Source: a virus. Taken from it: a DNA stretch of 64,000 nt. Position 1 is the first letter of the stretch; each line of letters opens with the position of its first letter. Location of the stretch: positions 133,825-197,824 of IMG/VR virus record IMGVR_UViG_3300045988_163643. One strand, 5' to 3'. The notes beneath the pieces are model-generated. The model was not told the origin of the DNA, did not search any database, and was given only the letters and a program-made list of their open reading frames with translations. Both the position numbers and the translations under genes were made by a program. Positions 2,150 through 48,280 of the stretch are shown here, piece after piece.

Positions 2150-5100
2150 TTGAGTCAATTTGATATAAGAATTGGTACGCAACTAGATACTAGTAAAGCG
2201 TTACAAGAATTAATGGAATTTGTCAAAAAATATGACAATAAAGAAAAGATAAATATAGACATAGGTCAATCAAAAGGTGCTAATAATGTAAAGAATACAA
2301 CTAAAGCTATGAAAGAAATGCAAAAAATAGCTAAGGCATTAGGAAATACAAAGATTGACGTAGGTAGTAACATAGGTAAAGCAACCAATGAAGCTACTAA
2401 ATCATTAGAAAATAGCATAGACAAACAAGCAAAATCTATTGCTAAAATAACTAGTGGTGCACAAAGAGATTTAACTAAAGATGCTCAAAAGGGTATTGAA
2501 AATAGTCTTAAAGGTATTACTACAGAAATGAAAAATACCCAAAGAAATGTTGACAAGATGATTGGTACTCTTGAACGAGCTAAGAAGGTTGAGTTAATAG
2601 ACCAAAAAGGTTTAGATGAAGGATTAGCTAAATTAAAAGATATGAAAGCTAACCTTAGAATAGACAATGTTGGTGATGTAGAGAAAAAATTAGGCGAAGT
2701 AGCAAATGACTATAAAAGATTAATGTCAGATGCAACTAAAGAAGCATTTAATAATGTTGAAGTATCAGGATTATTAGAGGATTTAAAAGTTGTTAGAGAA
2801 GCTATGTCAGCTAAAAACATGGACTTAACTGGTGTTGATACTTTAATTTCTAAAGCTAAACAACTTACTTCTTTAAGTGTTGACCAAATGTTAAAACAAT
2901 ACAAAGAGTTAAGACAAGTATTTAGTAAAGAATTAAAGATACCATTAGGTTTAAATGGTGTAATGAATGCTGAAACTGCAATTAAAAATGTTTTAGATTA
3001 TAAAAACAAATTAACTGCTAAAATTTCAGTTGAAACAAATTCAGAGCAAGTAGATATTTTAAGAGATAAAATAGTAAGATGTGATGAAGTTGTTAAACAA
3101 CTTGAAGGAGACTTAAATTTAGTAGGTAGAAGTACAGCATTAAACTTAATGGAACAATCCAATGAAAGAGAATTAGATACATTAAGTGCTAAGTTAAAGA
3201 GATGTAAGAATGATTATGCTAACTTAGAAAAAGAAAGACAAAGATTAAATAGAGATAGTAGATACATTGGAACAGAAGATTTAAGTAATATAGAAAAACA
3301 ATCATTAGCTATAAAGAAAGCTCTTGATAGTTTAAATGTTGGAAATTTAAATACAGATAAAATAAATAAAGTTACTGGCGATATAAATAATTTAAGAAAA
3401 ACAATAGAATTAACTGGTAATTCAGCTAAAAAATTAGATATAGAAGCGACAGTTAAAGTAGATATGAAAACTGCTCAAGACCAATTAAATGGTATGTATT
3501 CTGCTTTAATAAAATCTAATAAATCCACTGTAATGGTTAAAAAATATAAAGATGAATTAGAAGGATTGTTTGATTTATCTAAGGCTAATCCAGGTATAGC
3601 ATTAGACAAAATAAGTGGTTTTATAGAAAAAGTAAATAAAGAAGCAAGTAATAAAGGTTTAGGCAAAATAACTGGTGGATTAGACCAATATAAACAATAT
3701 TTAAAAGATTATGAAACATTAGTTAAAAAAGCTAGTGGCACTACAGATATTGGTTTTGCAAAAGCTTACAAATCAGAAGTTACACAAATAGAAAAGGCAT
3801 TAGACCAATTAGAAAGTGGATTTAACCAAACTCAAAAATCTATGGCTAAAGCCTTGAGATTAGAATCACTTAATAAGAACACTCAAGAGTTTACTAATCA
3901 AGTTGAAAAATCTATTAAGAAAACTCAAGAATATAAAAAAGAGTTACAAACTCTTAATAAAGATGTAAATTTTGATGGTCTTACTTCTAAATTAGGTCAA
4001 AAAGTCAAAGAAGAATTTGACGGAATGATTAATAAAACTAATCAATTAGAAAAAAGACTTAATAATATGTTGTCATCTGGTAATGTAAATACTACTGAAT
4101 TATCTAAATTAAAATCAGAACTTGAAAGTACTTTTTCTGGACTTTCTAAACTTAAAGATACTAGTATAAAAATTAAAACTGATGAAACTATATCAGGACT
4201 TAATAAAATCAAAAAAGATTTAGAATCATTAGGTCAAGATACTAGTCAAATAGAAAGAGTTATTAATGCATTAAAAGAACTTAAAGCTAATTTCAATGGT
4301 GGTACAGCAGGTTATAAAGAATTAGCTAATGGAATAAAGGCTATTGGAAAAGATAATAACTTAGAAAAACTAAATAGTTCTTTAGAAAAATCAACTAAAA
4401 AATTTAATAACTTAGCTAAAGTTGTCGGAGAACTAAAAGTTAAAAATATAGGTAATATAGACCAAGGTGCTTTTCAATCTTTAGATAGTCAAGTTGCACG
4501 AATACAATCTCATATAGAAGGTTTAAATAAAAACGACATATCTTTAATAGATGTTAAAAAAGTTGAAGCAGAAGTAAATGAATTAAGCAACTGTGTAGAA
4601 AAAATGAGTAGTGAATTGACTCAGTATAGCAGATACTTAGAAGAATATAAAAGATTATCTAGTCAAGCAGGTAAAACAAACGATGTTAATTTAGCTACAA
4701 AATATCAACAAGAAGCAGAAGGTATAAAAGGTGTATTAACTCAATTAGAGAGTGAATTTACACAAGCTCAAAAATCTATTGCTCAAGGATTAAAAACCGA
4801 TGCTTTCTCTAATGCTAATGAAAAAATGTCTTCTGAAATTAATAAAACAATTAATACAGTTGATGGTCTTAAAGAAAAACTTAATACATTAGATAAAGAT
4901 GTACATTTTGAAAATATGACATCTGAATTAGGTAAAGAATTAAATAGTCAATTTAATACTTTAGCTAACAAAGGTGAAGAATTAAAAGATAAATTAAGTA
5001 AAATATTAGCATCTGATAATGTAGATATTTCTGCTTTAAGTAAAATTAAAAAAGAAATAAATGAGTTTGCAAGTGAAGTTAATAATTTAAAAAATTCTGC

Positions 5101-7265
5101 AATGGATAATGTTATTAGAGAATCTTTTGATAACATTAAAATACCTAATTTAAATAAACAACTAGAAGCAGTTAAAGATTTAATGTCACTTAAAAATATG
5201 GATACTAGTGGTATAGATGCCTTAATAGAAAGAACTAAAAAACTATCAAGCTTAAGCGTAGATAAAATAGGTCAAGAATTTAAGGAAATACAAAATGCAC
5301 TTGGTAAAGAAATTAATTTACGTTTAGGTACTAGTGGTATTAAAGATATAGAATCTGCATTAAAAGTCATATTACAATATAGAAATGAATTAAAAAATAA
5401 AATAGCAATTGAAACAGATTCATCAAAAGTAAAAGACCTTAATAGTCAATTAGAAAAAACTGAAAGCATAATAGAAAAACTTAAAGGTCAAACTAGTGGT
5501 GGACTTGGTGCAAGTTTAATTAGTGATGCCAACAATAATAACTTAAAACAATTAGAAGATACTGCTAATGGATTAAAGAAAACATTCTCTAATTTGGAAA
5601 GTGAAGTAAATAAATTAAACAACGAAGCATTGAATAAGGTTGATATAAGTCAATTAAGAGAAATGAATGAAGTTGTTAATGATGTAAAGAGAAATTTGGC
5701 ATCTATCGGAGAAGGAAATGTTAATGTTGATTCAATAAATAAAACAGCACAAGACATAGAAAAATTAAAGAGATTAATAGAAAATACTAAAAAAACAATT
5801 AGTGATATGAAATTAGAAGTTTCATTTAATATTAAATCAAATGAAGCAGAACAATATTTAGCAGGTTTTGAATCAGCTTTATTGAGGTTAGGTAAATCAA
5901 CTAGTGGAATAAATGCTTTAAAGAGTGAATTTGAAAGTATAAAAAATTCAGCTAATGGAAATTTAAGTAGTGCCATAAAAATGATTGATGACTTTATTAA
6001 TAAATTGAAACAAATGGGTAGCAAACAAGGTTTAGGTAATATAAGTGGTACTATGTCTCAGTACAAACAATATACTAGAGAATTACAACAAGCCATGAGT
6101 GGGGCGTTAAAATCTAGTGGTTCTGATACGGCTAAAGGATTCGAACAACAAGCCGAACGAATAAAAAGTGCCATAAAACGTTTAGTTTCAAGTTTCAAAG
6201 AATCACAAAGAGAATCAGCTAATGCTTTTAATGGTAGTACATTTAGTAATTTCTCTTCTAAATATGAAGCTGAAATAAACAAAGTTGAAAGAAGTATAAA
6301 TAAATTTAAATCATCAATGCAAAACTTAGATAAAGCTGTAAACTTCAAAGGTTTTCAAACTGATTTAGGAAGAGGTTTATCTGAACAATTTGACCAAATA
6401 ATGGCAAAAGCTGAACAATTAAGAGATAGACTAAAAAGTGCATTATCATCTGGTACTTTTGATATAAGTGAAATAAATAAAATAAAAGATGAATTAAAAC
6501 AAGTTGAGCAAGAGGCAGATTCATTAAAACAAAAATCTATAGTATTAAAATGTGCTGAAAGTATAACAGAATTAGAAAGACTTAGCAGTAAGATAAAAGA
6601 TATAGGTGGAGACACATCAAAAATAGAAGAATTAAAAAATAAATTTGTTACACTTGGTACAGGTATAAGAGAAGGTACTACTGGAATAGATGATGCAATT
6701 TCTAAAATGAAATCTTTATCTTCGGAAGCACAAAGAACTGCTAGTTCTTTTGAATCAACTGCTGGTAAAATAGGTTCTTTTGGTTCTAAAATACAAGGTT
6801 TCTTTAGTTCTATAAAGAATTCATTTAGTACTTTTACTATTGGTAATTTAATGGCTGATGGTATAAGCCGAGCTGTTTATGAAATAAAAGATACTATAAC
6901 AGGTTTAGATGAAGCAATGTCTGATTTTAAAAGAGTTGCTCCTGATAACTTTAGTTTAAATACATCTAATTTACAAAGTGTTGCTAACGAAGCAAGAGAA
7001 ATAGGTATTAGTGTTGGACAATCAGTAGAAGATGTTATTACTGGAATGAGTACTGCATTACAAGCAGGTGCAGGCGATATTAAAACTGCTTCTGAAATAG
7101 CAAAAAGTTCTGCAATATTCCAAAATGTTACAGATATGTCAGCAAAAAGTGCTTCAAAAGCTGTTTCTTCAATGATAAATCAATATTATGATATGGATTC
7201 AGCATTAAATCAAGTTGACCACGGTGTAGGTAAATCCGTAAAAGGATACAACAACTTAACAGAGG
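2150..7265 (+). CDS. tail tape measure protein, exon 1 of 5
   Basis: TTG start behind GGAGGTG. About 1,705 codons of coiled-coil-type sequence run into the TMP core (FKRVAPDNF...GISVGQSVEDVITGMSTALQAG). The ORF-track tail VTYSLLY* is intron read-through. Junction +/-2 nt. Confidence 0.85.
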
Positions 7266-7479
7266 TAACATACAGCCTCCTATATTAAGTAATTAGTATA
7301 GAAAATTTCTTTAATTGCTGGAAACTCCTAAAGCCTTACAAACTACAACGTAGAGTTAAAACTCAAGCGTGAATGTGGCGAAAGCAGAAAAAATTGTAAG
7401 GATTACCCAAGGTTAAATCCTAAAGGTGAATGAATGGACAATCAGCAGGTAAGATTCTAAATTAAATTATTTTAAATAT

Positions 7480-7508
7480 TTGACTTTTAATAATAAAATG
7501 AGTATAAT
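7480..7508 (+). promoter_or_regulatory. sigma-70-type promoter inside the intron, driving the endonuclease gene
   Basis: TTGACT (7480-7485), 17-nt spacer, TATAAT (7503-7508), then GAGGTG RBS and ATG 7532. Confidence 0.7.
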
Positions 7509-7531
7509 ATAAGTAAAGTGAGGTGATTAAA

Positions 7532-8428
7532 ATGGGAAGAAAATGGGATTATGAAAAAGTTAAAGAATATATAGAAAATTTTAAATATAAATTATTAAGT
7601 GAGGAATACAAAAATAATAAAATTAAATTATTAATTAAATGTGATAAAGGACATGTATTTAAATGTTCATTTCATAATTTTAAAGATAGAGACTCTAGAT
7701 GTCCGTATTGTAATGGTAAAAAAATAACATATGATATGGTCAAGTTTTACATTGAATCTTACAATTATAAATTATTAAATGAAGATTATGTTGATAATTC
7801 TACTAAATTGTTAATAGAATGCGATAAAGGGCATACGTTTAAAATGCGATGGAATAATTTTCAACAAGGGCAAAGATGTCCTATATGTGATAAAAGTCAT
7901 AAAAAGAATTATAAAGATGTAAAAATAGAATTAGAAAAAGAAGGTTATGAATTAATATCGAGCAAATATAAGAATAGTAAAGAAAAATTATTAATCATGT
8001 GTCCTAATGGTCATACATATGAAACAAGTTGGAATAATTTTCAAAGAGGAAGAAGATGTCCAATGTGTAATATAACAAAAGGAGAAAAAAAGATAAAAGA
8101 AATATTAGATAATAATAAAATAGAATATATGTATAATAAAAAATACTTTAAAGATTTAAAAGGAATAAATGGAGGATTATTAAGACCAGACTTTGTAATA
8201 CCATCATTAAGAATATGGATTGAATATGATGGTATACAACATTTTGAACCTAAAGATTTTGCTGGTAAAGGTGAAGAATGGGCTAAAAAAGAATTCGTTT
8301 TAAGAAAAATGAAAGATAAAATAAAAGATGAGTATGCTAAAGAACATGATTGGAAATTAATAAGAATACCTTATTGGGAATATGATAATATAGAAAACAT
8401 ATTAATAAAAGAATTAAATTTAAAATAA
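7532..8428 (+). CDS. intron-encoded homing endonuclease: 3 tandem Zn-ribbon modules plus Vsr/DUF559-like PD-(D/E)XK nuclease
   Basis: Three ~58-aa repeats (YKLL..EYKN...L.I.C..GH......NF..G.RCP.C) followed by GEKKIKEIL...LRPDFVIP...IEYDGIQH...IRIPYWEY. ATG 7532 is preferred over the track start at 7523 because of RBS spacing. Confidence 0.75.
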   Translation: MGRKWDYEKVKEYIENFKYKLLSEEYKNNKIKLLIKCDKGHVFKCSFHNFKDRDSRCPYCNGKKITYDMVKFYIESYNYKLLNEDYVDNSTKLLIECDKGHTFKMRWNNFQQGQRCPICDKSHKKNYKDVKIELEKEGYELISSKYKNSKEKLLIMCPNGHTYETSWNNFQRGRRCPMCNITKGEKKIKEILDNNKIEYMYNKKYFKDLKGINGGLLRPDFVIPSLRIWIEYDGIQHFEPKDFAGKGEEWAKKEFVLRKMKDKIKDEYAKEHDWKLIRIPYWEYDNIENILIKELNLK

Positions 8429-8607
8429 TTTAACAAGAATAAACTTCAACGACTAGAACGCAAGTTCGTAGGGTGTAAGCGATTGACACTCGAAATGGGA
8501 AACAATCAAAAACGGGTTGATGATATAGTCTGCTCTCATGGGAAACCATGAGCAGTTTTCATATAAAGAAAACGGATTAAGTGTAGCGAACTTAATTGAA
8601 CAAGAGG

Positions 8608-8754
8608 CAATGGACTTGGTCAATTATGCAGGCAATAATTTTGCGATTTCATCTGATGGTGTAACAGAAGCATTACAACGTGGTGGTTCTGTATTATCTA
8701 ACTATGGAGTAGATTTAAAAGATTCTATCGCAATGATAACTGGGGCAAATGAGT
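8608..8754 (+). CDS. tail tape measure protein, exon 2 of 5
   Basis: AMDLVNYAGNNFAISSDGVTEALQRGGSVLSNYGVDLKDSIAMITGANE is the hallmark TP901-type TMP core. The ORF-track N-terminus MGNHEQ...IEQE (8538-8607) is intron sequence. Confidence 0.8.
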
Positions 8755-9090
8755 TAAATATGGCTCTTTTATATAGTAATATATAATTAAATTTTCTTGA
8801 ATTGACAGGGACTCCCTTAGAGCTTTACACACTAACTTATGATAGAAATATACATAAGGGCATTGCTAACCACAATGATATAGTAAAAGAGGTAAAGATT
8901 GGGAAATCTGCATCTAAGATTCTAAGTTGTGTAAACAATATGAATAAAGTTCAACGACTAAGTATCCTAGTAGTCTAGGTAGTGGGAAACCTCCTATTGA
9001 AGGAGGAAGATATAGTCTCAACGTTTAGTGAAAGCTAAAGAAGTTCATAAGAGAACTGCGTAAGAATAACGAACTTATGTGAAGATATTG
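8755..9090 (+). mobile_element. group I intron (336 nt, no ORF)
   Basis: P1 GAGT/GCTC with U.G at 8754, TTGAATTGACAGGGACTCCCTTAGAGC core, CAACGACTA ... GATATAGTC, and terminal hairpin plus TGAAGATATTG. The U(-1)/terminal-G junction joins the exons in frame (GANE-S-LQDPARIG). Confidence 0.85.
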
Positions 9091-12000
9091 CATTACAAGA
9101 CCCCGCTCGTATAGGTAATGGGCTAAAATCTATAGCAATTAACCTTTCAGGTATTAAAACAAATGCCAAAACAGGTGCTCTTGAATTAAATAAAACAGCA
9201 AAAGCATTGCAAGAGACTGCTAAAATAGATATATTTACTGATAGTACTAAAACACAAGTTAAAGATATCGTTAGTATAATGGATGAAGTAAAAGATAAAT
9301 GGTCTTCTTTAACTGATGTTGAACAAAAAGGACTATCAGAAGCTATAGCTGGAAAAACCCAAGCCGGTGTATTCCAAGCATTAATGACAGGTTGGGAAAG
9401 AGTTCGTCAATATCAAAAAGAATACAATGAAGGTTGGATGATAGGTTCAGCTCAAAGAGAAAATGAAGTCTTTATGGACTCCATTGCTGGTAAATTTAAT
9501 ACTTTAAAAGAAAATCTTAAAGGATTATTAACTAGCAATGTTACAACAGATATGTTTAAAGGACTATTAGATGGTGCTAATAAAGTAGTAGAAGCAGTAG
9601 GAAAAATAAGTTCAAGCTTAGGTAGCATTGGTTCTGCTGGTGCATTAGTAGGTATTTCATCTTTCATAAAAACTTTATCAAATTTAGATAAAGTTAAAAC
9701 AATGGGAAGTGTATTTACTGGATTTGACAAAGTTTTAGGTGGGTTACAAGGTGCATCTGGTATTTCTGGTACAATTAGTACATTAACAGGTAGCTTTAAA
9801 GAATTAGGTGTTGGTGTAACTTTATCTAAAGTAGCATTAGGATTATTTAAAGGTGTACTAATGGGTATTGCATTTACTGCTGTTGTTGCAGGAATAAGTG
9901 CTTGTGTAAAAGCATGGAACGATTATACTCATGCAACAGAAAACGCAGTAAAGGCTTCTAAAGAAAGACAAGATGGATATAGAGATGAAGCACAAACTTT
10001 AAGTACTAAAAAATCAAGCCTACAAGAAATAGCTAAAGAATATGATAATTTAAATAATAAATCTGATAAAACTGCTGAAGATTTAACTAAATTAAATGAA
10101 TTAAAACAACAAATAGGACAAATAGCTCCTGACCTTGTTAAAGGATATGATTCAGCAGGCAATCCAATATTAAACCTTACTACTAGTATGCAGGGTTATA
10201 TAGCTGAATTAAATAAGGCAATTGCTAAACAACAAGAATTATATAACTATGAAACTAAAAAACAAGCACGAGAATATATGAAGAAAAATGACACTAAAAA
10301 TGGAGCTCAAGACCCAGAAAGAAATTCTTATGAAACTGAATTAAATAATCTTCAAAGTGCAAATGATAGAAAAACTAGAGAAGAAAAAAGATATACTGGT
10401 AGCTTAAAAAATATTATTAAAGATAGAAATAAATATAGAGAAGACCAAGAAAAAAGTATTAATGAAAGATTAGAAAGAATTAGAAATTCACAAACAGAAA
10501 TTAATAATAGAGATGCTACACTTGAAGATAATTATGTTAATGAATTTAATAAGAAAACTAAATTAGCCGAAAAAGAACAAAATAAATTTGCTACCTTTAT
10601 GAAAGGGTTAAATTGGGGTACTTATGGTGAAGCAGAAGCCAATAGAATGGCTAATGGTTTACAAAAATTATCTGAAAAGACAGCATTTACAACTCAAGAG
10701 ATGACAAAAGGATTATCAGGTAGCATGTCAAAAAAAGTTTCAGAAGAAATTTCTAAAGTAAATGCAGAATTCAAAAAAACAAATGCTATAAATGAATGGG
10801 GAAAAGGTTTAAGAAAAATAGCTAATGAAACAGGAAAATTTGATTTTTCAAATTGGAGTAATTACTTATCAGAAGTCCAAACTCGTTTTGAACAAGGAGT
10901 AAGTACTAATGAACAATATACACATTCATTAGGAATTATGGCTGATGCTATGGAAGATTTAACTGGTATAGATTCAGATGTATTCTTACCAGCTTTAAAA
11001 GGTGGAGCAGATTTAGAAGAAGCCTTTAAATCAGCAACTGAAGGTTTAAATGGTTTTATGAGTGCTTATGGTTCTTCTACTGCAAAATTACAACAAGGTG
11101 ATTCATTTGCTAAAAAATTAGAATCTCAATTTAAAGAACTTCAAAATTTTGAAACTGAATTTGAAGGTCAATATGAGATGCAAGGTAAAGTTAGTGTAGA
11201 TTGGTTAGTAGAACAAAAAGATAATGAAGATTTACCTAAACAATTAAGAACAATAATAGATGCAGTAACAAAAGATGGAGAAGTAACAGAAGTAGAAGAA
11301 AAATTAGTATTAGCTTGTGAAACAGAAATAAAAGATAAAGGTAAATTACAACAAAGTACAATAGATGCAATAAATCAAGTAATGGACGGAACTTGGGATG
11401 TAAATAAAACTATTGAAATAGGTGGTATGGAATTTACATCATCTGAAATAAAAGAATTAATGTCATTAGCTGACCAATTAGGTATATCTTTAGAAGGTTT
11501 AAATATTGGTGATACAGGATTAGACGGAGAAAACCAAAAAGCTCAAGCATTAAAAGATACAATAGATTCAATTACAGATAGAAATATAAAAGTAGCAATA
11601 GAAGCTGAAGGATTTGAAAATTCAGACCAAGTTAATAATATAATGTCAGTTGTTGACCAAATAGACGGAAAACAAGCTAAAGTTGATTTTATAGCAGATG
11701 CTTCTCAATATTTTAAGGAAAATGATAGTGTTGAATCAGCAATAAATGCTATGCCTGATGAGATAAAACTTAAATATAATATTGGTGTTGAAGGTGATGA
11801 AAGACTAGAAGGAATACAAAGTAGACTTGAAAAATTACCAAAAGATATTAGAACTATGGTATATGCTCAAACATATGGTGTTGAAAATGTTGAAATGCTA
11901 GAAAACATAGTAGATGCTTTTGGTGGAAAAACTGCAACAGCAATATTACAGTTAGATGGTATAGATGAAGCTCTTAGAAATGCTAGTACATTTGAAGAAC

Positions 12001-15000
12001 AATTAAAAATAATTGGAGATTTTATATGTCAACCTGGAGTAGAAATAGAAGGTAAAGATGACATAATTAAAACAATTGATGAAATATTAAAGAAGTTAAA
12101 AGAAACAGATGGGCAAGAAAGTAATCCTAAAATAAACGTAGAAGGAGATACTTCAGGTGCCGAGAAAGTAAAAAAAGAAGTAGATGAAGTAGGCAATAAA
12201 AAAGGGACAGCTAAAGCTGATGTAGATGGAGATACTTCAGGAGCTGAAAAAGTAGAAAAAGAAGTAGACAATGTAAATGGAAAAAAAGGTACTGCTGAAG
12301 CAAATGTGGATGGCAATACTGAAGGTGCTGAAAAAGTAGAAAAAGAAGTAGACAATGTAAATGGGAAAAAAGGTACTGCTAATGTAGATATTAAAGCAGA
12401 TACCTCTGAAGCTGAAAAAGCTAAAAAAGAAGTAGATAATTTAGCAGTCAACAAAAATGGTACAGTTACTTTATTAGTAAATGGTCAAGAAAAAATAGCT
12501 GAAGCTAAAATTAATAAAGGTCAATTAGAAGTAAATGGTCAAGCAGTTACAACTATTTCTGTTAACGGTAAAGACCAATTACCAATAGCTATTAATGAAA
12601 AAGGTCAATTAGAAGTAAATGGTCAAGCTATAACTAATATAGATGTTAATGGTAAAGACCAATTAACTTTAGCTAGAAATGAAAAAGGTCAATTAGAAGT
12701 AAATGGTCAAGCTATAACTAATATAGATGTTAATGGTAAAGACCAATTAACTTTAGCTAGAAATGAAAAAGGTCAATTAGAAGTAAATGGTCAAGCTATA
12801 ACTAATATAGATGTTAATGGTAAAGAAAAAGTTTCTGAAGCAAAAAAAGAAGTTGATGATTTAACCAAAGATAATAAAAATGTTAGTATTAATATTGATG
12901 TTTCATTAAAAGAAACTGTTGGTGAAATATTATCAAGATTTGGATTAAATAAGAAAACAGAAAATGTTGAAATTAATGTAACATGTAATGATAATGCAAC
13001 TCCAGTATTAGAAAAAATAATGGCAAGACAAGATAAAACTATACAAATAAAAGTAGATTGTCAAGATAATGCAACTTCTAAAATAAACAATATAACTAAA
13101 ATAGGAAATAAAACTGTAACAGTTACAATAAATTGTCAAGATAATGCAACTTCTAAAATAAATAGTATAGCTAGTATGGGTAATAAATCTGTAACAGTTA
13201 CTATAAATTGTCAAGACAACGCAAGTTCTACAATAAATAGAGTTACAAGTGCACCTTCTTCTAAAGCAATAAATGTTGTAGTAACTTGTACAAATGGTGG
13301 AGCAGTTCTTAATACTCTTTCTCAATTAGCTAGTAAAGTAATACCTAGTAAAAAATTTACTATAAATTGTACAGATAGTGCTAGTAGTGTAGTAAGTAGA
13401 GTTAATGGTTTAAAAATATCTGATAAGAAATTTACTATAAATTGTACAGATAATGCAACTGCTAAAATAAATAAGGTTATTAGTAAAAAAATACCAAATA
13501 AATCATTTACTATAAGTTGTAATGATAATGCTAGTGGTAAATTAAGTAGTATTATAAGTAAAATAAGTAATATTCGTAGTAAATCAGTAACAATTACTAC
13601 TAATCATGTAAGTACAGGTAAGAGTTCATCTATTGGTGAACCAACAGTTGTTGATTTACAACCTCAACCATTTAGTGCTCAAGCTTCTAATCCTCAAGTA
13701 CAATCATTAGGAGAACAAGTTCAAGTATTAAATGATAGTGTGCAACAACAAACTGACAATAACAATGAAGTTAGTGTAATGGCTAAGAAGACATATAAAG
13801 CTAATATTGATACAGGTTTAACAGTAAGTGCAGTTAAATATAATATTGATTTATTAACTAACATGACTAATATGCTTAAAAAATTAGGAACTCAAGTTGA
13901 TATATTAAAAGCTAAACAAGAAAGAACTTGGGGTACTGCAAGTGCTAAGTTACTTAGAAATCAAATTTCTTTACTAACTAAACAACAAGATTTAACTAAA
14001 ATAAATATTAAAAACATGGAAGGTATGGCTAAAAAACTTAAAGGTAGTTTACAAAAACAAGGATTTAAGTTTAAAGATGACGGAACAATAAGTAATTACA
14101 ATAGTAAACTTGTAAAAATGCAAAAAAATGTTGAAAGTTTAGAGAAAGCTGAAAAAGCACTAGAAGACCAAATAAGTAAAACTGAAAAACAAATTTCAAA
14201 ATCTGAAAAGAAATCTTCAAGTAAGAAAAAATCAACTAGTAAGAAAAAGAAAAGTACTAGTAAGAAAAAGAGTACGAGCAAAAAGAAGAAAACTTCAAGT
14301 AAAAAGAAATCAACTAAGAAAAAGAGCACTAAGAAGAAAACTACTAAGAAGAAGAGTGCTAGTAGAAGCAATAGAAAAACTACATCAAGTAAAGCTAGTA
14401 AAAAGAAGACTACTAAGAAGAAAAAATCAACTAGTAAGAAAAAGAGTACATCAACTAAGAAGAAGAGTACTAAAAAGAGTACTAAAAAGAAAACTACTTC
14501 TAAGAAGAAATCAACCACTAAGAAGAAGAGTACATCTTCAAGCAAGAAATCAAAAGCAACTAAAGCATTAGAAAAGAAAAAGAGCGGATTAGAAAAGAAA
14601 AAGGATGCAATAAGCAAACAATTAGAAAAAGCACAAAAAGAATTATCAGAAACTCAAAGCAAATTAAATGAATATTATAATTTACAATTTAGTGAAATTC
14701 CTGAAGCTCAACAACAATGGGAAGAATATGCTAATGCAATAGCTGAAGCTAAAGCAGAAATAATTAGATGTGAATTAGAAGCTAAAACATTCTTTAAGAC
14801 AATTAAGATGGAAATGAAAGATGCTATGATTAGCAGAAATGAAACTTGGGCAGATACATTTATGTTGAAGGCTGATTTAAGTAGTTGGTCTAAAGCAATA
14901 GGATATATTAAAGAAGCTAATAAATTATTAGCAAAAAATCAACAACATCAACAATCTAAATTAGAAACAGCTCAAGCAAGAGCGGAAGATAATAAAGCAT

Positions 15001-16578
15001 TTTTAAAGAAACAAGGATTTAAATTTGATAAAAATGGATATGTAACAGGTGCTGAAAAAACTTTACAAAAACTTAAAAAGAAGAAATCATCACAAGAATA
15101 CGATGCTATAAAAGAAGCATTTGATAGTTACGTTGATGATATGTATGAAAATATTCCTAAAGCTGAAAATGAATGGTGGAAATTAGAACAAGAAATAAAA
15201 GAAAATGAAAGACAAATAAAAGAAACTACTAAATCTATGAATGATTTAGTTAATTCAGCTAAAGTAGATAAATTAACTAGACAATTTGATGTACTTTCAA
15301 ATACTTTAGATATATTAGACCTTAAAATGGAACGTGCATATGGAGCTAATAAAATAGACTATATGAAACAACAACTTGATATATTATCTAATATGAAAAG
15401 TAAGAATCAAGAAATCATTAATCAAAATACTGAGTTATTAAATAATAGTAAGAAACAATTAGTTAAATATGGTGTTACATTTGATGAAGATGGTAATATA
15501 GATAATCTATCAAAAGCATTGAAAAAATTAGATAATCTACAAGATATGGAAGATTTAAAAGATTTAGCTGATGAATATAATGATTACAAAGATTCAATAG
15601 ATGATGCTAGTAAATCAATTGAAGAAGAAACTAATAAACAACTTGAATTAAAAGATTCAATGATGGAAATTAGAGAAGAAATGAGAAAACTTAGAGATGA
15701 TGCATGGGTTAAAACTTATGAAAATGGTCTAAAAGTTATTCAAAATCGTATTGATACAATAGATTCTTTATTAGATTTGGAAGATGAAAATCAATTTGGT
15801 TTACTAAATCAAAAAATTGAAGAATATAAGAATTTAACTAAAGCGACTGAGGATAGTTTGGCTTATCAAAAACATAGAAAAATCACTATGCAAAAAACAT
15901 TGATTGATTATGGTTTCACTATTAATGATGATGGTACAATAGATGGAACTGCTAATAAATTAGAACAACTTAAAAATACATTATCTGAAACTGAATTTGG
16001 TATAGTAAGTGATACATTAGAAGATTATTTTGATACTGCTTTAGATACAATTCCTGAATTAGAAAGAGAATTAATAAAATATCAAAAAGATTTAAAAGAT
16101 ATACAAAATACTAAACTAGAAAAGACTAAAACTATTGAAGAAAAAATTACTGAAATATATAATGATGAAATAGATAAAAGAACTAAAAAGATACAAGAAG
16201 AAGCAGAAACACAAACTAAAGCACTTAATAAAGCCAAAGAATCTTATCAGAGATGGAGAGACGAAGTTGACTATAAAGATGATTATAATAAACAATTAAA
16301 AACTGTTGAAGATTTACAAAAGAAAATAGAAATAGCAAAACGTGATGACAGCTTAACTGGACAAAAACGTTTAGCTGATTTGATGAAAGAATTAAAAGAA
16401 GAACAAGAAAATCTTGAAGATTTAGTTCAAGACAAAATAGATTCAGATATAAATAACATGTTTGATGACCAAATAGATAAAATAGAAGAAAATTCTGATG
16501 AAGAAGTTAAGAATTTGGAAAAAACATGGTCAGAAAGCAAAATAGCTGAAATGGTTAAACAAGCACTTGATACTGGAG
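9091..16578 (+). CDS. tail tape measure protein, exon 3 of 5
   Basis: Starts (S)LQDPARIGNGLKSIAINLSGIKTN..., continuing the TMP core. Then a hydrophobic GVGVTLSKVALGLFKGVLMGIAFTAVVAGISA segment, tandem repeats, a K/S/T-rich tract and long coiled coil. The ORF track begins only at internal M 9207. Confidence 0.85.
12135..12450 (+). repeat. in-frame tandem repeat, ~84-nt unit x ~4 (DVDGDTSGAEKVEKEVDNVNGKKGTAEA)
   Basis: Read directly from the DNA and translation of TMP exon 3. Confidence 0.85.
12510..12830 (+). repeat. in-frame tandem repeat, 84-nt unit (NEKGQLEVNGQAITNIDVNGKDQLTLAR)
   Basis: 12594-12677 and 12678-12761 are identical at the DNA level, and a third copy is truncated at about 12827. 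More diverged copies lie upstream. Confidence 0.9.
12960..13610 (+). repeat. in-frame ~75-nt repeat x ~9, one Cys per unit (INCQDNATSKINxIxxxGNKxVTVT)
   Basis: Periodic (I/V)xC(Q/T/N)DNA(T/S)... units in the TMP exon 3 translation. Confidence 0.8.
14205..14560 (+). repeat. low-complexity polybasic K/S/T tract (~120 aa) inside the TMP
   Basis: SKKKSTSKKKKSTSKKKSTSKKKKTSSKKKSTKKK... It also creates the spurious ORFs 14096..14617(-) and 14356..14571(+). Confidence 0.9.
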
Positions 16579-16925
16579 TAAATTAGCTCCTTTTACTAAG
16601 TAATTAGTATTAAAACTCATTGAATTGCTGGAACTTCCTAAAGCTAACTAAACTACAATATGGCTAGAAATGGCGAATATGAATGTGGCGAAAGCAGAAA
16701 AAATTAGTTAGATATTCATATGGTTAAATCCTAAGTGAATGTAAATGGATAATCAGCAGGGAAGTCCCTTTAAAATGGGAAACCTTCAACGACTATATAT
16801 ACTAGTAGTCTAGTTAGTGGTGAGCATCCTTATAGGATGATGATATAGTCTACTCTCATGTGAAAGCATGAGCAGTTCATAAGAGAACGGTATAAGGTTT
16901 AACGAACTTTATATGAATGTTAAGG
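16579..16925 (+). mobile_element. group I intron (347 nt, no ORF)
   Basis: P1 GGAGT/GCTCC, P2 TACTAAGTAATTAGTA, TTGAATTGCTGGAACTTCCTAAAGC, AATCAGCAGG, CAACGACTA ... GATATAGTCTAC, P9 hairpin, and tail TGAATGTTAAGG. Junction +/-1 nt (see the splice-junction finding). Confidence 0.8.
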
Positions 16926-17034
16926 TGTTTACAGATATCGATGGGAATATAAAAACTCTTCAAACAGCATTAATGGATTTTGCTAATGAAAGTTCTGATT
17001 ATTTTGGAGTTATGGGTAATGTTGCCCTAGTCGT
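16926..17034 (+). CDS. tail tape measure protein, exon 4 of 5 (109-nt micro-exon)
   Basis: This is the only open frame: (V)FTDIDGNIKTLQTALMDFANESSDYFGVMGNVALV. The other two frames hit stops. It is bounded by introns on both sides. Confidence 0.7.
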
Positions 17035-17227
17035 AGAGTAATTTGCGACTGAAAATAGATTTAATTGCAGGTAATTCCTAAAGCCTTACACCACAAGTAT
17101 TCTGAAAAGAGATACTGAAGGTACGAAAGTAGAAAAAACGTAAGGATGAATATAAGGTTAAACCCTAAGTATTCGTAATAATGGATGTTCATGCAGGTAA
17201 GATTCTAAATTAAATTATTTTAAATAT

Positions 17228-17256
17228 TTGACTTTTAATAATAAAATGAGTATAAT
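17228..17256 (+). promoter_or_regulatory. sigma-70-type promoter inside the intron
   Basis: TTGACT-N17-TATAAT, in a block nearly identical to 7455-7531. Confidence 0.7.
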
Positions 17257-17278
17257 ATAAGTAAAGCGAGGTGATTAA

Positions 17279-18607
17279 ATGGCAAAAAGAAAAAGATATA
17301 CATATCAAGATGTTAAAAATATTGTTGAAAATGAAAATTATGAATTAATAAGTACAGAAAATGAAATTATTGATGAAAAGGGATTTGTTAAAACATCAAC
17401 TAAAATAACAGTATGGTGTAAAAATGAAAATCATAATTATATAAAACCTCAATTAAGTAAGTTTCTCAAAGGGGGTAGATGTGGAAAGTGCAGAAATGAT
17501 AATAAAAAACTTGATTATAAATATGTAAAAGAATATGTTGAATCATTTGGATATAAATTATTATCAAAAGAGTATAAAAATAATTCAACGGATTTGTTAA
17601 TTGAATGTCCATTAGAACATAAGTTTAAAATGATTTTTAATAATTTTAAAAAAGGACAAAGATGTCCCAAATGTGGTGAAATAAAAAGAAGAGAAAAAAG
17701 AACGATATGGAATAAAGAAAAAATAATTAATTTTGTGAAAAATAGTAATTATGAATTTATCAAATTTGTTAAATTTGACAAATTAAACTCAAGAATATTA
17801 ATAAAATGTAATAATAAAAAACATGAGTCATATGAAGTTACTTTTGCTAATTTTAAAAATGGAAAAAGATGTCCGTACTGTTCTAATCATGTAAAATTTG
17901 ATTATAAATATGTAAAAGAATATATTGAATCATTTGGATACAAGTTATTATCAAAAGAATATAAAAATACAAATGAATATATTTTAATAAAATGCCCTGA
18001 TGAAAATCATAAACCTTATTTAGTTAAATTTTCTTCTTTTAAAAATCAAGAAACTAGATGTCCTTATTGTCAAAATAAAAAAAGAGGATTATATAGAAAG
18101 TTTGATTATAAATATGTAAAAGAATATGTTGAATCATTTGGATATAAATTGTTATCAAAAGAATATAAAAATTGTGATGAAAAACTAAAAATAGAATGTA
18201 ATAAAGGACATATTTATGAAGTATCTTTTTATTGTTTTAAAAATTTAAATACAAGATGTCCTATATGTAATGAGAGCAAGGGAGAAATAAAAATAAGAGA
18301 GATACTTAATAAATATGATATAAAATTTACTCCTCAAAAGAAATATAGTAAATTAATTGGAATTAAAGGCAGACAATTGTCTTATGATTTTTATTTACCT
18401 TTATATAACACATTGATAGAATATCAAGGAGAATATCATGATGGTACGGGATATAATCAAACTAAAGAAAAATTTGAAACCCAAAAAGAACACGATAAAA
18501 GAAAAAGAAATTACGCTAAAGACAATAACATAAAATTATTAGAAATATGGTATTATGATTTTGATAATATAGAAAATATATTAATAAAAGAATTGAATTT
18601 AAAATAA
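17279..18607 (+). CDS. intron-encoded homing endonuclease: 5 tandem Zn-ribbon modules plus Vsr/DUF559-like nuclease
   Basis: Five repeats ending in RCGKC / RCPKC / RCPYC / RCPYC / RCPIC, then GEIKIREIL...LSYDFYLP...IEYQGEYHDG...LEIWYYDFDNIENILIKELNLK. The C-terminal 14 aa match the 7532-8428 protein. Confidence 0.8.
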   Translation: MAKRKRYTYQDVKNIVENENYELISTENEIIDEKGFVKTSTKITVWCKNENHNYIKPQLSKFLKGGRCGKCRNDNKKLDYKYVKEYVESFGYKLLSKEYKNNSTDLLIECPLEHKFKMIFNNFKKGQRCPKCGEIKRREKRTIWNKEKIINFVKNSNYEFIKFVKFDKLNSRILIKCNNKKHESYEVTFANFKNGKRCPYCSNHVKFDYKYVKEYIESFGYKLLSKEYKNTNEYILIKCPDENHKPYLVKFSSFKNQETRCPYCQNKKRGLYRKFDYKYVKEYVESFGYKLLSKEYKNCDEKLKIECNKGHIYEVSFYCFKNLNTRCPICNESKGEIKIREILNKYDIKFTPQKKYSKLIGIKGRQLSYDFYLPLYNTLIEYQGEYHDGTGYNQTKEKFETQKEHDKRKRNYAKDNNIKLLEIWYYDFDNIENILIKELNLK

Positions 18608-18783
18608 TTTAACAAGAATAAACTTCAACGACTAGAACGCAAGTTCGTAGGGTGTAAGCGATTGACACTCGAAAAGGTCTACCCTTAATATTAAGGTGAA
18701 GAAATAGTCTAGTCACTCTAGGAAACTAGGTGCTTAGAATTAACTAAGGTTTATAGTGTAGCGACTATAAATAAATATTAACG

Positions 18784-19093
18784 TGATAGCTTAAAGAAAG
18801 AATTATTAGACAATCTTAATGTAGCATTGGAAACTATGAAAGAACTTCAAAAAATGTCAGATAATTATACAGCTCCTAATATAGATTATAGTAATACGGT
18901 ACTTCCAAAAGATAGTACTATTAATACTTCTCCACAAGTTTCTAGTAATGTTGAAACTAATAATATTACAATTGGAGATACAAATATTACAATTCAAGGT
19001 AGTGCAGATGATGTTACTTTAGGAAAAGTAGATGAAATGTTAAAAGATTACAAAGCAAGTATTTGTAAGGAAATTGTTAAAAATATGAAATAA
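18784..19093 (+). CDS. tail tape measure protein, exon 5 of 5
   Basis: (V)DSLKKELLDNLNVALETMKELQ...ITIGDTNITIQGSADDVTLGKVDEMLKDYKASICKEIVKNMK*. The five exons total 13,170 nt, which is 4,389 codons plus a stop, in frame. Confidence 0.8.
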
Positions 19094-40739: not shown

Positions 40740-42122
40740 ATGGCTACAGAAGGTAAAAAAATAAGTCAACTAACAGAAGTGTTAAGTGTTGACAAAGAAA
40801 ATGACTATATAATTGTACAACGTGGAGCAGATAATAAAAAGTTAAAATTAGCCAATGTAATGACAACAGATAATATGGGTGACAATTATGTTGATTTAAA
40901 ATCATATGAAGATAAAAGTGAATTTAGATTAATTATAAATGATGATGGAAAAGTTCAAGTATTTCCAAAGGAATGTGTTGAGGGTCATACTTATGCTGAA
41001 AATGATAATTTACAAATGCCTTTAAAATTAGCTAGTTATATAGGTAATTCTCAAACTGCATTATCTACTGTTAATAATGGAGGTATTGTTATTAATCAAA
41101 TTTATGGTGGTGGAGATTTAGTACCAACATCAACTTTACAAGCACCTAGCGTTAGTCATAGTTTTGTTGAATTATACAATCGTAATGTTGTAGATATTAA
41201 TTTAAAAGGATTATATTTACATTATAAAGGTAATGATGAAACTGTTTGGAAAACATTAGCGTTAAGAGGACTTTTACCAGCACACACTGCTTTTTTAATT
41301 AGAGGTAAACAACATGGAGATTTAATGAGTGATTTAGTAAGATGTAAAATATACGATTATGACCAAGAATGGATAGATTCTGATAAAAATGAACCTATTG
41401 CATTTAGTAGAAATGGTATGTCAATGTTTTTATCAACTAACTCAACTCCGCCTAATGCTAATGAAAACCCTAATAGATATCTTATAACAACTGATACTTC
41501 AGGTGTATCAACATTATCATATGTCAATGGATATTATGTAGATTTATTAGGTGTGGGTAGTGCTGATGGAACAAAAAACCCAGTTGCTTATGAAAAATTC
41601 TATTGGACTTGTATGGATAAAGATACTGCAATAAGAAGAATAGATTTTTATAATAATAAAAATAACAAATATGATACAAAAGCTATAAATTATAAAACTT
41701 GTAATATAGAACATTATAGACCAAGAAGTTTAAGAGATGGAATTTGGGATAACTATTGTGATAAAGCAACTATAAATGAAAACATACCTAATCTTATAGA
41801 TATAACTTTTGGTGAACAACCTACAACAAGACTTTTTACATGGCAATCTGTTTTAACAGATAATGGTTGTGTAAAACTTAGAAGAATAAAAGATAAAAGT
41901 GGAGTAGCAGTAACTGAAAATTGGAAAAAATATGAAAGTGAACGTGAAATAGTTAATAATCATGGTACATTTATGACAATACATAGAACTAAAATAACCA
42001 ATATAACACCTGGTTTATACGAATATCAATGTGGAGAAGAAGGTTATTGGTCAGATGTACAAATGATAGAAATGAGAGAATATACAGATAGTAGTACTAT
42101 TAAAATGCTTTGGACTACGGAT
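40740..42122 (+). CDS. LTD plus purple-acid-phosphatase-like metallophosphoesterase, exon 1 of 4
   Basis: Lamin-tail-domain signature SHSFVELYNRNVVDINLKGLYLHY and a PAP N-terminal-like beta domain. The exon ends ...KMLWTTD (motif I Asp). The TAA at 42123 is the first intron codon. Confidence 0.75.
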
Positions 42123-42446
42123 TAAATATTAGTCCCTATGTAAAGTGATTTATATAGCAAACCTCTTGAATTGCTGGGAAACCCTTAGAGCCTTAATACC
42201 ACAATATAAGAGAAATCATTATATGAAGGTTTGAAAAGTTTAAGGATTGGGTAATCAGCAGGTAAGATTCTAAGTTGTATAAACAATATGAATAAACTTC
42301 AACGAACAAGTATCCTAGTAGTCTAGGTAGTGGGAGGGGTCTCGAAAGAGATTGTGATATGCTCTACTCTCATGTGAAAGCATGAGCAGTTTTCTTTGAG
42401 TAAGAAAACGGGTAGAATAGTAACGATATTCTATTGAATATAAAGG
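42123..42446 (+). mobile_element. group I intron (324 nt, no ORF)
   Basis: P1 GGAT/GTCC with U.G at 42122 and a 3-bp extension, TTGAATTGCTGGGAAACCCTTAGAGCC core, and tail TGAATATAAAGG. The junction is in frame (TTD-QQG). The P7 strands diverge (CAACGAACA / GATATGCTC). Confidence 0.8.
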
Positions 42447-47087: not shown

Positions 47088-47165
47088 TAATAATAGCTCA
47101 AATAAAACCTTTTCTGATATACGGCGAAACTCCTGGAGAGGACAACGCCTTCCAACTATTATTTA

Positions 47166-47194
47166 TTGACAAATTATAAAAATATATGTATAAT
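47166..47194 (+). promoter_or_regulatory. sigma-70-type promoter inside the intron
   Basis: TTGACA (47166-47171), 17-nt spacer, TATAAT (47189-47194), then AGGAGG RBS 47218-47223. Confidence 0.7.
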
Positions 47195-47230
47195 ATAAAT
47201 ATAAAGAGAATATATATAGGAGGTGATTAT

Positions 47231-48088
47231 GTGTGTAAGAAAGAGAATAGTTTTGCACAATGGTTTATAAATGAATTTGGATTAGAAAAATTTAACACTG
47301 TCATAAATCATGAAAAAAATAAATCATTAGGCATAGATATTTGGAACGTATCAAAGAGAAGTGGTTGTAAAATTTGGTTTAAATGTGAAAATAAAGATTA
47401 TCACGAATATCAACTTACAGCCGATAAATATTTTATTGGTAATAGATGTAAATATTGTGGCAGAACAAAATATGTTCATCCAAGAGATTCGTTAGGTCAA
47501 TATATAATTGATAACTTTGGAGAAGATTTTTTAAATAGAATATGGTCAACAAAAAATAAAAAATCGCCTTTTGAATATACTATTGGAACTGAGAAGAAAG
47601 TTTGGTTTAATTGTATCAATGGTATTCATGAACCAAAATTAAGACAAATAAAAAATTCTGTTGCTAACGACTTTAAATGCCCATTTTGTTTAAAAAATTG
47701 CCATATTTCAAAATTAGAAAAGAAAGTGTTTTTATATTTAAAAAGCATTTTTAAAAACATAAATAGAGAAAGCAATTGTAATTTAATACCCAAAAATCCT
47801 AAAACTAATAAAATAATGCCTTATGATAATGAGATAGTGGACATAAAATTAATAATAGAAGTACATGGAAAACAGCATTATGAATTATCAGTAGATACAA
47901 GTGCATGGTTACATGGATTATCACCAGAAGAATATCTTCATAAAAGAAAATTGTATGATAGGTATAAAAGAATGTACGCAAAGTCCAATGGTTATTATTA
48001 TTTAGAAATACCTTATTGGGCTGATGATTTAGAGGAAACTTGGAAAATTATGATTGATGATAAAATAAAAGAAATATTAAGTCAATAA
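47231..48088 (+). CDS. intron-encoded homing endonuclease: Zn-ribbon modules plus Vsr/DUF559-like nuclease (divergent member)
   Basis: WFKCENKDYHEYQ...NRCKYCG and VWFNCINGIHEP...FKCPFCL modules, then ...PYDNEIVDIKLIIEVHGKQHYE...YLEIPYW. The GTG 47231 start is preferred because the track ATG at 47186 overlaps the -10 box. Confidence 0.7.
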   Translation: MCKKENSFAQWFINEFGLEKFNTVINHEKNKSLGIDIWNVSKRSGCKIWFKCENKDYHEYQLTADKYFIGNRCKYCGRTKYVHPRDSLGQYIIDNFGEDFLNRIWSTKNKKSPFEYTIGTEKKVWFNCINGIHEPKLRQIKNSVANDFKCPFCLKNCHISKLEKKVFLYLKSIFKNINRESNCNLIPKNPKTNKIMPYDNEIVDIKLIIEVHGKQHYELSVDTSAWLHGLSPEEYLHKRKLYDRYKRMYAKSNGYYYLEIPYWADDLEETWKIMIDDKIKEILSQ

Positions 48089-48280
48089 ATAATAGGGGAA
48101 CAACGACTGAGCGAAAAGGACTTACTATAAAGTAAGTATGCAACAGTCTGAACTCACACTATAACTCAAAATATTAAGAAATGTGAGAAGGAAAGTCATC
48201 AGTAACCAGACTGATTAAAGAAGAACTTTCCTCGCCAACTTAGGTTGGTCGGTAGCCTTTATGGTGAAAGTAACAGAATG

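Follow-up and report, generated by a model that had tools for sequence, protein, structure and literature searches.

A tandem zinc-module array joined to a Vsr-like nuclease in a group I intron of a phiCD211-like clostridial phage: a probable homing endonuclease

A paper of 2025 on phage group II introns describes the architecture discussed here for a large outgroup of EDxHD/Vsr homing endonucleases, in which three to five domains of ~60 amino acids (aa), related to CapR, DUF4379 and DUF723, are followed by a Vsr/EDxHD-like nuclease of ~100 aa, and whose members mostly reside in phage group I introns (PMC12350094). Barth et al. described T5orf172 endonucleases with variable tandem CapR/DUF723/DUF4379 repeats, the copy number of which is altered by recombination between repeats (PMC10448857), and Netter et al. 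found that CapR binds DNA and that its cysteines are required (PMC8096241). Hef-type enzymes, for which endonuclease activity has been reported (PMC3322345), were placed in the Vsr-like family by Taylor et al. (PMC3239194). Here, we analyzed 64,000 nucleotides (nt) of the IMG/VR virus record IMGVR_UViG_3300045988_163643 (positions 133,825 to 197,824 of that record; hereafter the window), which is from a large phiCD211-like clostridial phage. At its center stands the open reading frame (ORF) p1, which is probably an intron-encoded homing endonuclease: a 'beads-on-a-string' array of CapR-like treble-clef modules with a C-terminal Vsr-like (EDxHD-type) nuclease, encoded in the P6 loop of a group I intron. 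It is an added member of a known, very common and biochemically uncharacterised kind, so that the novelty implied by an earlier reading of the letters alone (hereafter the sequence-only reading) is not upheld (PMC10448857; PMC12350094). Binding, cleavage and homing by p1 are what we infer from the evidence below, and the existing view of how homing endonucleases work is left unchanged.

Architecture of the three ORFs

The three ORFs named by the sequence-only reading were present where it had placed them, while a tblastn search of the 64-kb window with p1 and p3 revealed no fourth copy. Module borders were set by CxxC mapping and alignment.

17279..18607, plus strand: p1, endonuclease ORF, 442 aa, isoelectric point (pI) 9.4
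17279..17491, plus strand: zinc module 1 of p1, aa 1-71
17492..17674, plus strand: zinc module 2 of p1, aa 72-132; ligands C110, H114, C129, C132
17675..17881, plus strand: zinc module 3 of p1, aa 133-201; DUF4379 match at 172-204
17882..18070, plus strand: zinc module 4 of p1, aa 202-264; CapR match at 218-264
18071..18268, plus strand: zinc module 5 of p1, aa 265-330
18269..18604, plus strand: Vsr-like (EDxHD-type) nuclease domain of p1, aa 331-442, 112 aa
7532..8428, plus strand: p2, paralog with three zinc modules and nuclease domain, 298 aa from the ATG after the ribosome-binding site
7532-7711, 7712-7888 and 7889-8068, plus strand: zinc modules of p2
8069-8425, plus strand: nuclease domain of p2, 119 aa
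47231..48088, plus strand: p3, diverged paralog with two DUF4379-type modules and nuclease domain (motif IIEVHGKQH)

The copy numbers of five and three claimed for p1 and p2 were borne out by CxxC mapping and alignment, and so was p3 as a diverged third member, with two modules that match DUF4379 at 41.5 bits. The modules of p1 comprise 61-71 aa each and follow one another in tandem with Cys/His/Cys/Cys ligands. Thus the tandem arrangement proposed earlier stands, but not the module length of ~58 aa, since the modules of p1 and p2 measure 59-71 aa and those of p3 77-91 aa. The earlier module consensus fits modules 2, 4 and 5 of p1 near letter for letter. Searches with Pfam hidden Markov models, which the sequence-only reading had proposed for the zinc modules, placed CapR (PF21817; 39.7 bits, cutoff 24.2) and DUF4379 (PF14311, 'probable treble clef zinc finger'; 37.1 bits, cutoff 24.5) above their curated cutoffs on p1, each in several stretches per protein, and both scored higher on p2 than on p1. 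Among 495 distinct modules from the 120 best database homologs, the ligand columns hold C in 99%, H in 98%, C in 99% and C in 100%, and the consensus reads ..K.TYEeVKeYIESFGYkLLS.EYkN..tKL.ikCPkGH.YevtF.nFK.G.RCP.C.

The AlphaFold2 (AF2) model of full-length p1 reached a mean predicted local distance difference test (pLDDT) score of 91.3 together with a predicted template modelling (pTM) score of 0.44, as one would expect if the modules fold independently, like beads on a string. In the model, every module consists of a helix, a beta hairpin and a short helix, with the CxxC in the loop that follows; the C-x(2-4)-H knuckle sits on the hairpin, and modules 2 and 4 have an additional helix that begins at or just after the CxxC. 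Consequently, the 'Zn-ribbon' of the sequence-only reading holds as far as zinc-ligand modules are concerned, but the geometry in the AF2 model and the Pfam matches are closer to treble-clef/CapR-like modules than to a ribbon. Every p1 module is basic (pI 8.7-9.9), and since CapR binds DNA (PMC8096241), the modules are predicted to do the same.

That the array varies in copy number was likewise correct: it comprises 5, 3 and 2 modules in the window, 2-8 (mode 4) in the 120 homologs found via the whole protein, and 0-7 (mode 3) in 147 relatives found via the nuclease alone. In p1, the 69-nt N-terminal halves of modules 2, 4 and 5 are 94-97% identical at the nucleotide level, and the C-terminal halves of the same modules share 12-14 of 32-34 residues (~40%) at the protein level. 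Across homologs, module identity is 0.44 at the same position and 0.44 at different positions, against 0.50 within one protein, and this positional comparison gave no evidence of a fixed module order or a small set of module types. Such an array would fit duplication, gene conversion and shuffling within genes. The most variable columns of the 495 modules lie on or just after the beta hairpin that bears the Cys/His knuckle. One might speculate that the CapR-like modules form a combinatorial, re-assortable DNA-recognition system in which every module of ~60 aa recognizes a short, fixed piece of DNA and module number sets target length, an idea to which we give little credence. The reading residues could then be the variable ones on the hairpin, around and after the His ligand, while the conserved N-terminal half of the module could act as a recombination handle to swap specificity cassettes; if true, such arrays could be engineered in the manner of zinc-finger or TALE arrays. 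The 'programmable binder' of the sequence-only reading may be kept as an idea, and nothing in this analysis supports a recognition code.

The C-terminal domain had been read as a Vsr/DUF559-like nuclease, and this assignment was supported by structure prediction. The consensus given for it fits, including the tail DNIENILIKELNLK that is identical in p1 and p2, while the C-terminal domain of p3 comprises 132 aa. AlphaFold modelling, as the sequence-only reading had suggested, was run on the full array and on the nuclease domain and gave confident models in which the nuclease fold is seen; the domain alone reached pLDDT 96.1 and pTM 0.86. Its best match in the PDB by Foldseek was E. coli Vsr (1cw0; probability 1.0, TM 0.72, E 3.6e-3; also 1vsr), and further matches were the Vsr-like domains of AbaSI and PvuRts1I, RAP-domain mitoribosomal proteins and the DUF559 protein 3hrl. 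The full-length p1 model gave the same order of matches as the domain alone. Pfam DUF559 and Vsr (PF04480, PF03852) stayed below their gathering thresholds (DUF559 13.5 bits on p2, cutoff 20.6), and PDB searches with p1 or its C-terminal domain, both single-sequence and profile, found nothing significant. Among 28 C-terminal domains of the family, the sub-threshold Pfam matches fall into one clan: DUF559 (15/28, best E 5e-3), RAP (11/28, best 7e-7), DUF7255, DUF2726 and PvuRts1I-like_N. No Pfam match to a T5orf172/GIY-YIG nuclease domain was obtained in p1-p3, nor to a helix-turn-helix or NUMOD in their N-terminal part, where zinc modules alone were found.

The predicted catalytic residues of p1 are E336, D370, (E381), Q383 as the 'x', H387 and D406. 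An hhalign comparison with Vsr (E 0.0083) placed E336/D370/Q383/H387/D406 on Vsr E25/D51/H64/H69/D97, and the catalytic columns are invariant in alignments of 28 and 69 sequences. The earlier pattern D...E.(D/Q)G..H is therefore a Vsr-like match, but its D/Q is not a conserved acid: it is the variable 'x' of EDxHD, which is N208 in I-Bth0305I and H64 in Vsr. Among the 147 nuclease-found relatives, 112 have D at this position, 25 have Q, 5 N, 2 S and 1 H.

In I-Bth0305I, residues D196, N208, H213 and D222 correspond to Vsr D51, H64, H69 and D97, and the crystallised construct carries D196A and H213A (PMC3239194). Our query comprised residues 12-90 of 3r3p, taken from an alignment of Vsr against the PDB, with D196 and H213 restored. 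The family profile aligned to it over 73 columns (E 1.3e-3), with D370/Q383/D406 on D196/N208/D222, while pairwise comparisons ranged from E 1.3e-3 to 1.7e-2. In the printed alignment H387 falls 1-2 residues before H213, beside an extra Trp of I-Bth0305I; by motif reading (DFYL...IE.xG..H...DKRK), not by that alignment, H387 would correspond to H213. Homology is settled by the relative P0014, which carries seven modules, matches p1 at 1.3e-104 and ends ...LDIWIP..AIEYNGAYWH..RDKIK: its nuclease domain has 3r3p as sole PDB match (E 1.1e-4; BLASTP 1e-9) and also matches the nuclease profile of the window (95.7% probability, E 8.7e-9). Thus the relation to the EDxHD enzyme I-Bth0305I, raised by the sequence-only reading, is correct but distant, with P0014 as the link at the sequence level.

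Some relatives depart from p1 in their nuclease part. Eight of them (P0006, P0014, P0036, P0054, P0062, P0066, P0079, P0084) combine 5-8 zinc modules with the I-Bth0305I-type motif AIE(Y/F)NGxYWH, not IEY(D/Q)GxxH, and thus the same DNA-binding arrays are joined to at least two Vsr-like nuclease sub-types. In three proteins of ~600 aa (P0121, P0123, P0125), the nuclease profile matches two separate stretches, which suggests that there might be two nuclease domains per protein.

All three ORFs have their zinc ligands and catalytic residues intact; p1 is free of frameshifts and stops, and keeps all 20 ligands. A protein identical to p1 occurs in the same context on 12 metagenome contigs. For p3, the longest ORF begins at 47186, and the GTG at 47231, preceded by GGAGGTG, is the likelier start. 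PHROGs 559 (1.8e-89 for p1), 9084 and 7140 were matched, all labelled as homing or intron-encoded nucleases, while an NCBIfam search found nothing.

Host introns, insertion sites and intron-less alleles

That the ORFs lie in introns, as the sequence-only reading had it, is borne out by uninterrupted homologs, by intron-less alleles and by the match to verified introns. The host introns and the elements associated with the ORFs are as follows.

17017..18783, plus strand: group I intron I4 of the tape-measure gene, hosts p1; 1767 nt, fixed within one nucleotide (17017-18783, U...G, or 17018-18784)
7266..8607, plus strand: group I intron I1 of the tape-measure gene, hosts p2; placed by an intron-less relative
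47088..48280, plus strand: intron in the CotH-like gene, hosts p3; inferred junction between FGL and DNTG; P1 UUUGGGU/GCUCAAA
17014..17027, plus strand: predicted P1 hairpin of I4; GGGU (17014-17017), loop AAUGUU, GCCC (17024-17027)
17210..17225, plus strand: 5' strand of the P6 extension, 16 base pairs (bp), pairs with 18597-18612
17228..17256, plus strand: promoter-like TTGACT-17 nt-TATAAT in I4, an 11/12 consensus match and the best of the region, with a putative function
17268..17274, plus strand: ribosome-binding site GAGGTGA of p1, 4 nt before the ATG
18597..18612, plus strand: 3' strand of the P6 extension, spans the last p1 codons and the stop (18605-18607)
47166-47194 and 47219-47225, plus strand: p3 signals TTGACA-17-TATAAT and GGAGGTG

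Against the spliced exons (2150-7265, 8608-8754, 9091-16578, 16926-17016 and 18784-19093), tape-measure proteins of Clostridioides phages give a single unbroken alignment. The exons comprise 4,383 codons without a stop, for a protein of 4,383 aa provided that translation begins at the TTG at 2150, and phiCD211 has an annotated group I intron of its own in the tape-measure gene. Similarly, homologs of the CotH-like gene that is interrupted by the p3 element are uninterrupted and align in one piece over the junction. The tape-measure protein also contains a long low-complexity tract rich in Lys, Ser and Thr (SKKKSTSKKKKSTSKKK...) and internal repeat families, e.g. NGQAITNIDVNGKDQLTLARNEKGQLEV.

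Rfam detected three ORF-less group I introns at 42113-43291 and, both at the gathering threshold and in E-value mode, no intron around the p1 and p2 ORFs; in I1 and I4 the ribozyme is interrupted by the ORF, which is why they escape Rfam. A profile built from the three Rfam-verified introns of the window gave these matches:

16584-16925: full-length relative, E 6e-48
8761-9086: full-length relative, E 3e-30
48742-49194: full-length relative, E 1e-27
38-159: partial copy, E 1.4e-16
8432-8602: 3' half of I1 (p2), E 2.1e-22
17019-17212: 5' half of I4 (p1), E 1.8e-8

Neither Rfam nor this profile detected the p3 intron. The core element CTTCAACGACTA is common to the introns, both ends of I4 align with the sister introns, and the P1 of I4 aligns column for column with that of the Rfam-verified intron at 43034 (GUGGU/GCCAC). 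A GUCGU/GCGAC hairpin was rejected as P1 of I4, as it represents P2. Both p1 and p2 break their introns in stem P6, which in ORF-less sister introns reads GGUAAGAUUCUAAGUU...AUGAAUAAACUUCAACGACUA. The P6 extension of I4 is a perfect 16-bp duplex (-18.2 kcal/mol, RNAduplex), and the same duplex occurs in I1. The tail ...NIENILIKELNLK (...ELNLK and stop) is conserved in many diverged homologs, probably because the last codons form the 3' strand of P6. An identical copy of the promoter-like site of I4 lies at 7480-7508 in I1. Furthermore, the introns of p1 and p2 share a 91-nt 5' flank and a 113-nt 3' end at 98% identity while the ORF bodies differ, and the two elements are therefore mosaics. The shared flanks (7445-7535 vs 17193-17282; 8383-8495 vs 18562-18674) hold the promoter and ribosome-binding-site cassette on one side, and the last ~15 codons with 67 nt of intron core on the other, while the bodies differ in module number (3 vs 5) and in the nuclease subfamily (D-type vs Q-type).

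Intron-less alleles were found by a protein-guided locus search. For I4, IMG/VR relatives of 97% protein identity read uninterrupted ...GGAGTTATGGGTGATTCATTAAAG... (GVMG joined to DSLKK), which places the intron at 17017-18783, or one T shifted. Candidate in-frame borders at 17035-18789, 17023-18789 and 17018-18796 were ruled out by this allele. For I1, an IMG/VR contig 100% identical over 70 aa joins NLTE to AMDLV and thereby fixes 7266-8607, and another relative lacks the intron at 8755-9090. The predicted ligated exons read ...AUGGGUGAUAGC... (I4) and ...ACAGAGGCAAUGG... (I1), and the proposed target site of p1 is ...TTTGGAGTTATGGGT^GATTCATTAAAGAAAG... The intron-less junctions are ...GATTATTTTGGAGTTATGGGTGATAGCTTAAAGAAAGAATTATTAGAC... 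(derived from the window) and ...GGGTGATTCATTAAAGAAAGAATTGTTAAAT... (relative) for I4, and ...AACTTAACAGAGGCAATGGACTTGGTC... and ...AACTTAACTGAAGCGATGGATTTAGTG... for the p2 site. An exact-pattern search for spliced junctions gave no match in viral, genome and metagenome collections, the early I4 patterns having used a wrong junction.

At the I1 site, window positions 7235-7265 and 8608-8640 were set against positions 2540-2600 of locus L023, from a near-identical relative. Over 70 residues the protein is unchanged between the intron-plus and the intron-less allele, while 12 synonymous differences separate them, 7 of which fall within 15 nt on either side of the insertion (Fisher p = 3e-4). 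Such clustering is what would be expected at a homing site. Candidate causes are a co-conversion tract, adaptation of the exon to P1 pairing, or a cleavage-resistant target. At the I4 site, the two alleles use different Ser codons (AGC vs TCA) 4-6 nt downstream, and the enrichment is not significant (p = 0.18).

In total, at least ten group I introns or pieces of them lie in 64 kb, an unusually high density (38-159, 7266-8607, 8755-9090, 16579-16925, 17017-18783, 42123-42446, 42571-42935, 43034-43347, 47088-48280 and 48742-49194), three of which were found at the Rfam gathering threshold. Four are in the tape-measure gene, two in the CotH-like gene and three within 1.2 kb of a purple-acid-phosphatase-like gene, where they leave micro-exons of 124 and 98 nt between them. 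Four of eight introns cannot meet both the rule that the exon ends in U and the rule that the intron ends in G: I1, I3, I4 and 42571-42935 (7262-7266/8607, 16575-16579/16925, 17014-17017/18783 and 42567-42571/42935). In their mature junctions the exon ends in G, one nucleotide before the U of the U.G pair; in I4 and I3 a repeated U leaves an alternative split, with an intron that ends in U, equally possible. With the intron-less allele of I4, either the exon has its U at -1 or the intron has its terminal G, but the two cannot be combined; the mature sequence of I1 clearly lacks the U. These junctions derive from the relatives' intron-less alleles (I1, I4) and, for 42571-42935, from the essential Asp of the motif NTG-D-ISQNA. 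The introns 8755-9090, 42123-42446, 43034-43347 and 47088-48280 are canonical, and all eight share the same P1 design.

Proposed action and rival explanations

If p1 is a homing endonuclease, the protein would be made during infection from the promoter-like site and ribosome-binding site inside the intron. Its basic zinc modules would bind a long stretch of DNA around the insertion site in the intron-less tape-measure allele of a co-infecting relative, and the nuclease would cut nearby, with D370 and D406 holding Mg2+ and H387 as the general base. Repair from the intron-containing genome would then copy intron and gene into the cut allele. With three and two modules, p2 and p3 would follow the same process at their own sites, and module number may shift by recombination between repeats.

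Several observations weigh against this reading. The AT-rich stretch around the promoter-like site holds 19 matches of this kind, that site among them, against 15 expected by chance. The intron-less alleles differ from the window near the insertion sites, and thus may be resistant rather than natural substrates. The E-values of Foldseek are modest (3.6e-3) despite a probability of 1.0, and a pairwise comparison shows weak direct similarity in sequence to I-Bth0305I (E 1.3e-3). Its structure 3r3p was neither found by a PDB profile search with the nuclease profile nor present among the top 50 Foldseek matches. Finally, I-Bth0305I acts as a homodimer (PMC3239194), an arrangement that a protein with five modules may be unable to adopt.

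According to Barth et al., homing is not inferable from sequence alone (PMC10448857), and p1 might have been domesticated or repurposed, either as a CapR-like DNA-binding regulator, as a nuclease against competing phages or satellites, or as a maturase for related introns. CapR is one case of a DNA-binding fragment from such genes that became domesticated (PMC8096241), repurposed endonuclease-related genes were described by Barth et al. (PMC10448857), and the window's ten or more related introns come with only three endonuclease genes. However, p1 retains a complete nuclease domain with all catalytic residues and sits where such genes classically do, within a mobile intron, while intron presence varies among close relatives exactly at the insertion sites, where synonymous divergence clusters as well. 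We therefore regard repurposing as unlikely. That p1 is a decaying remnant, its activity lost after fixation of the intron and its intact frame transient, appears very unlikely to us. Homing endonuclease genes commonly degenerate after fixation (PMC13619312), and p1 has Q instead of D in IEY(D/Q)G. In contrast, that position varies across the family among Q, D, N, S and H, and the active I-Bth0305I has N; moreover, the frame is unbroken, the 20 zinc ligands are preserved, two introns share the promoter and ribosome-binding-site cassette at 98% identity, and the identical protein recurs on 12 contigs.

The C-terminal domain might also be Vsr-like in its action, i.e., a nicking/mismatch or restriction-like enzyme unlinked to intron mobility, with the intron as a safe harbour. 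Vsr is indeed its best structural match, and viral relatives are frequently annotated as 'restriction endonuclease' or 'DUF2726'. However, the zinc site and the mismatch-intercalating elements of Vsr are absent from the p1 sequence (alignment; PMC3239194), the only characterised endonuclease of the branch cuts beside its own intron insertion site (PMC3239194), and family members recur in introns (PMC12350094), so that we consider this scenario highly improbable. The intron-encoded homing endonuclease thus remains our preferred explanation for p1. The locus comprises three paralogs with 2, 3 and 5 modules at defined insertion sites, together with natural intron-less alleles for two tape-measure sites, and is a convenient place to relate module number and sequence to the length and specificity of the target.

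Family labels and comparison with known systems

The family is very large, occurs in phages and giant viruses and is routinely mis-annotated. Homologs of p1 were found in 533 phage records, and the family search scored 2,519 proteins at E <= 1e-5 among its candidates. Matching BFVD structures number 304 at E <= 1e-3 and include giant-virus proteins, while the nuclease profile matched 44,458 cluster representatives at E <= 1e-3, 21,910 of them at E <= 1e-10. Homologs reside in introns of other phages as well, for example in the RNA polymerase gene of Staphylococcus phage Machias. Members are commonly labelled 'HNH endonuclease', 'restriction enzyme' or 'hypothetical protein' (PHROG 559, GenBank), and viral relatives are often annotated as 'restriction endonuclease' or 'DUF2726'. 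We reject the HNH label, since no HNH family exceeds its Pfam cutoff and the catalytic domain folds like Vsr; the sole HNH-related match was Endonuclease_7 on p2 (E 0.065, below cutoff). With no HNH motif and a Vsr-like fold, the label is a misnomer.

The kind described in the 2025 paper (PMC12350094) resembles p1-p3 in the CapR/DUF4379 arrays, the ~100-aa EDxHD/Vsr-like C-terminal domain and the location in self-splicing introns of phage genes, and the intron endonuclease of Staphylococcus phage Machias aligns over 93% of the length of p1. Here, in contrast, the host is a phiCD211-like clostridial phage, the targets are tape-measure and CotH-like genes, and the paralogs carry 2-5 modules. I-Bth0305I (3r3p) shares the Vsr-like C-terminal catalytic domain with aligned D-x-D positions, an N-terminal DNA-binding part and the phage group I intron. 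However, its N-terminal part is of the NUMOD2/helix-turn-helix type without zinc modules, its ORF lies in P5 instead of P6, and its sequence similarity to p1 is marginal (E ~1e-3) and needs a bridging relative. The T5orf172 endonucleases of ICP1 and other phages carry zinc DNA-binding modules of the same family, likewise in tandem and in variable number, whereas their nuclease is the GIY-YIG-related T5orf172 and not Vsr-like, and they are mostly free-standing rather than intron-borne. The satellite protein CapR belongs to the same module family as p1, with DNA binding that depends on cysteines. Nucleases of the Vsr/DUF559/RAP/PvuRts1I type have the fold and catalytic constellation seen in p1, but Pfam DUF559 stays below threshold here, the structural zinc site of Vsr is absent, and the role differs. 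Hef is known from T4-like and Campylobacter phages, and Campylobacter phage 'Hef' proteins align over ~90% of p1, while hef genes are free-standing. I-TevI of the T4 td intron is modular as well, with a zinc finger in its DNA-binding part, an ORF looped out from P6 and its own expression signals; in contrast to p1, however, its nuclease is of the GIY-YIG type and N-terminal, and its single zinc finger serves as a spacer rather than as part of an array.

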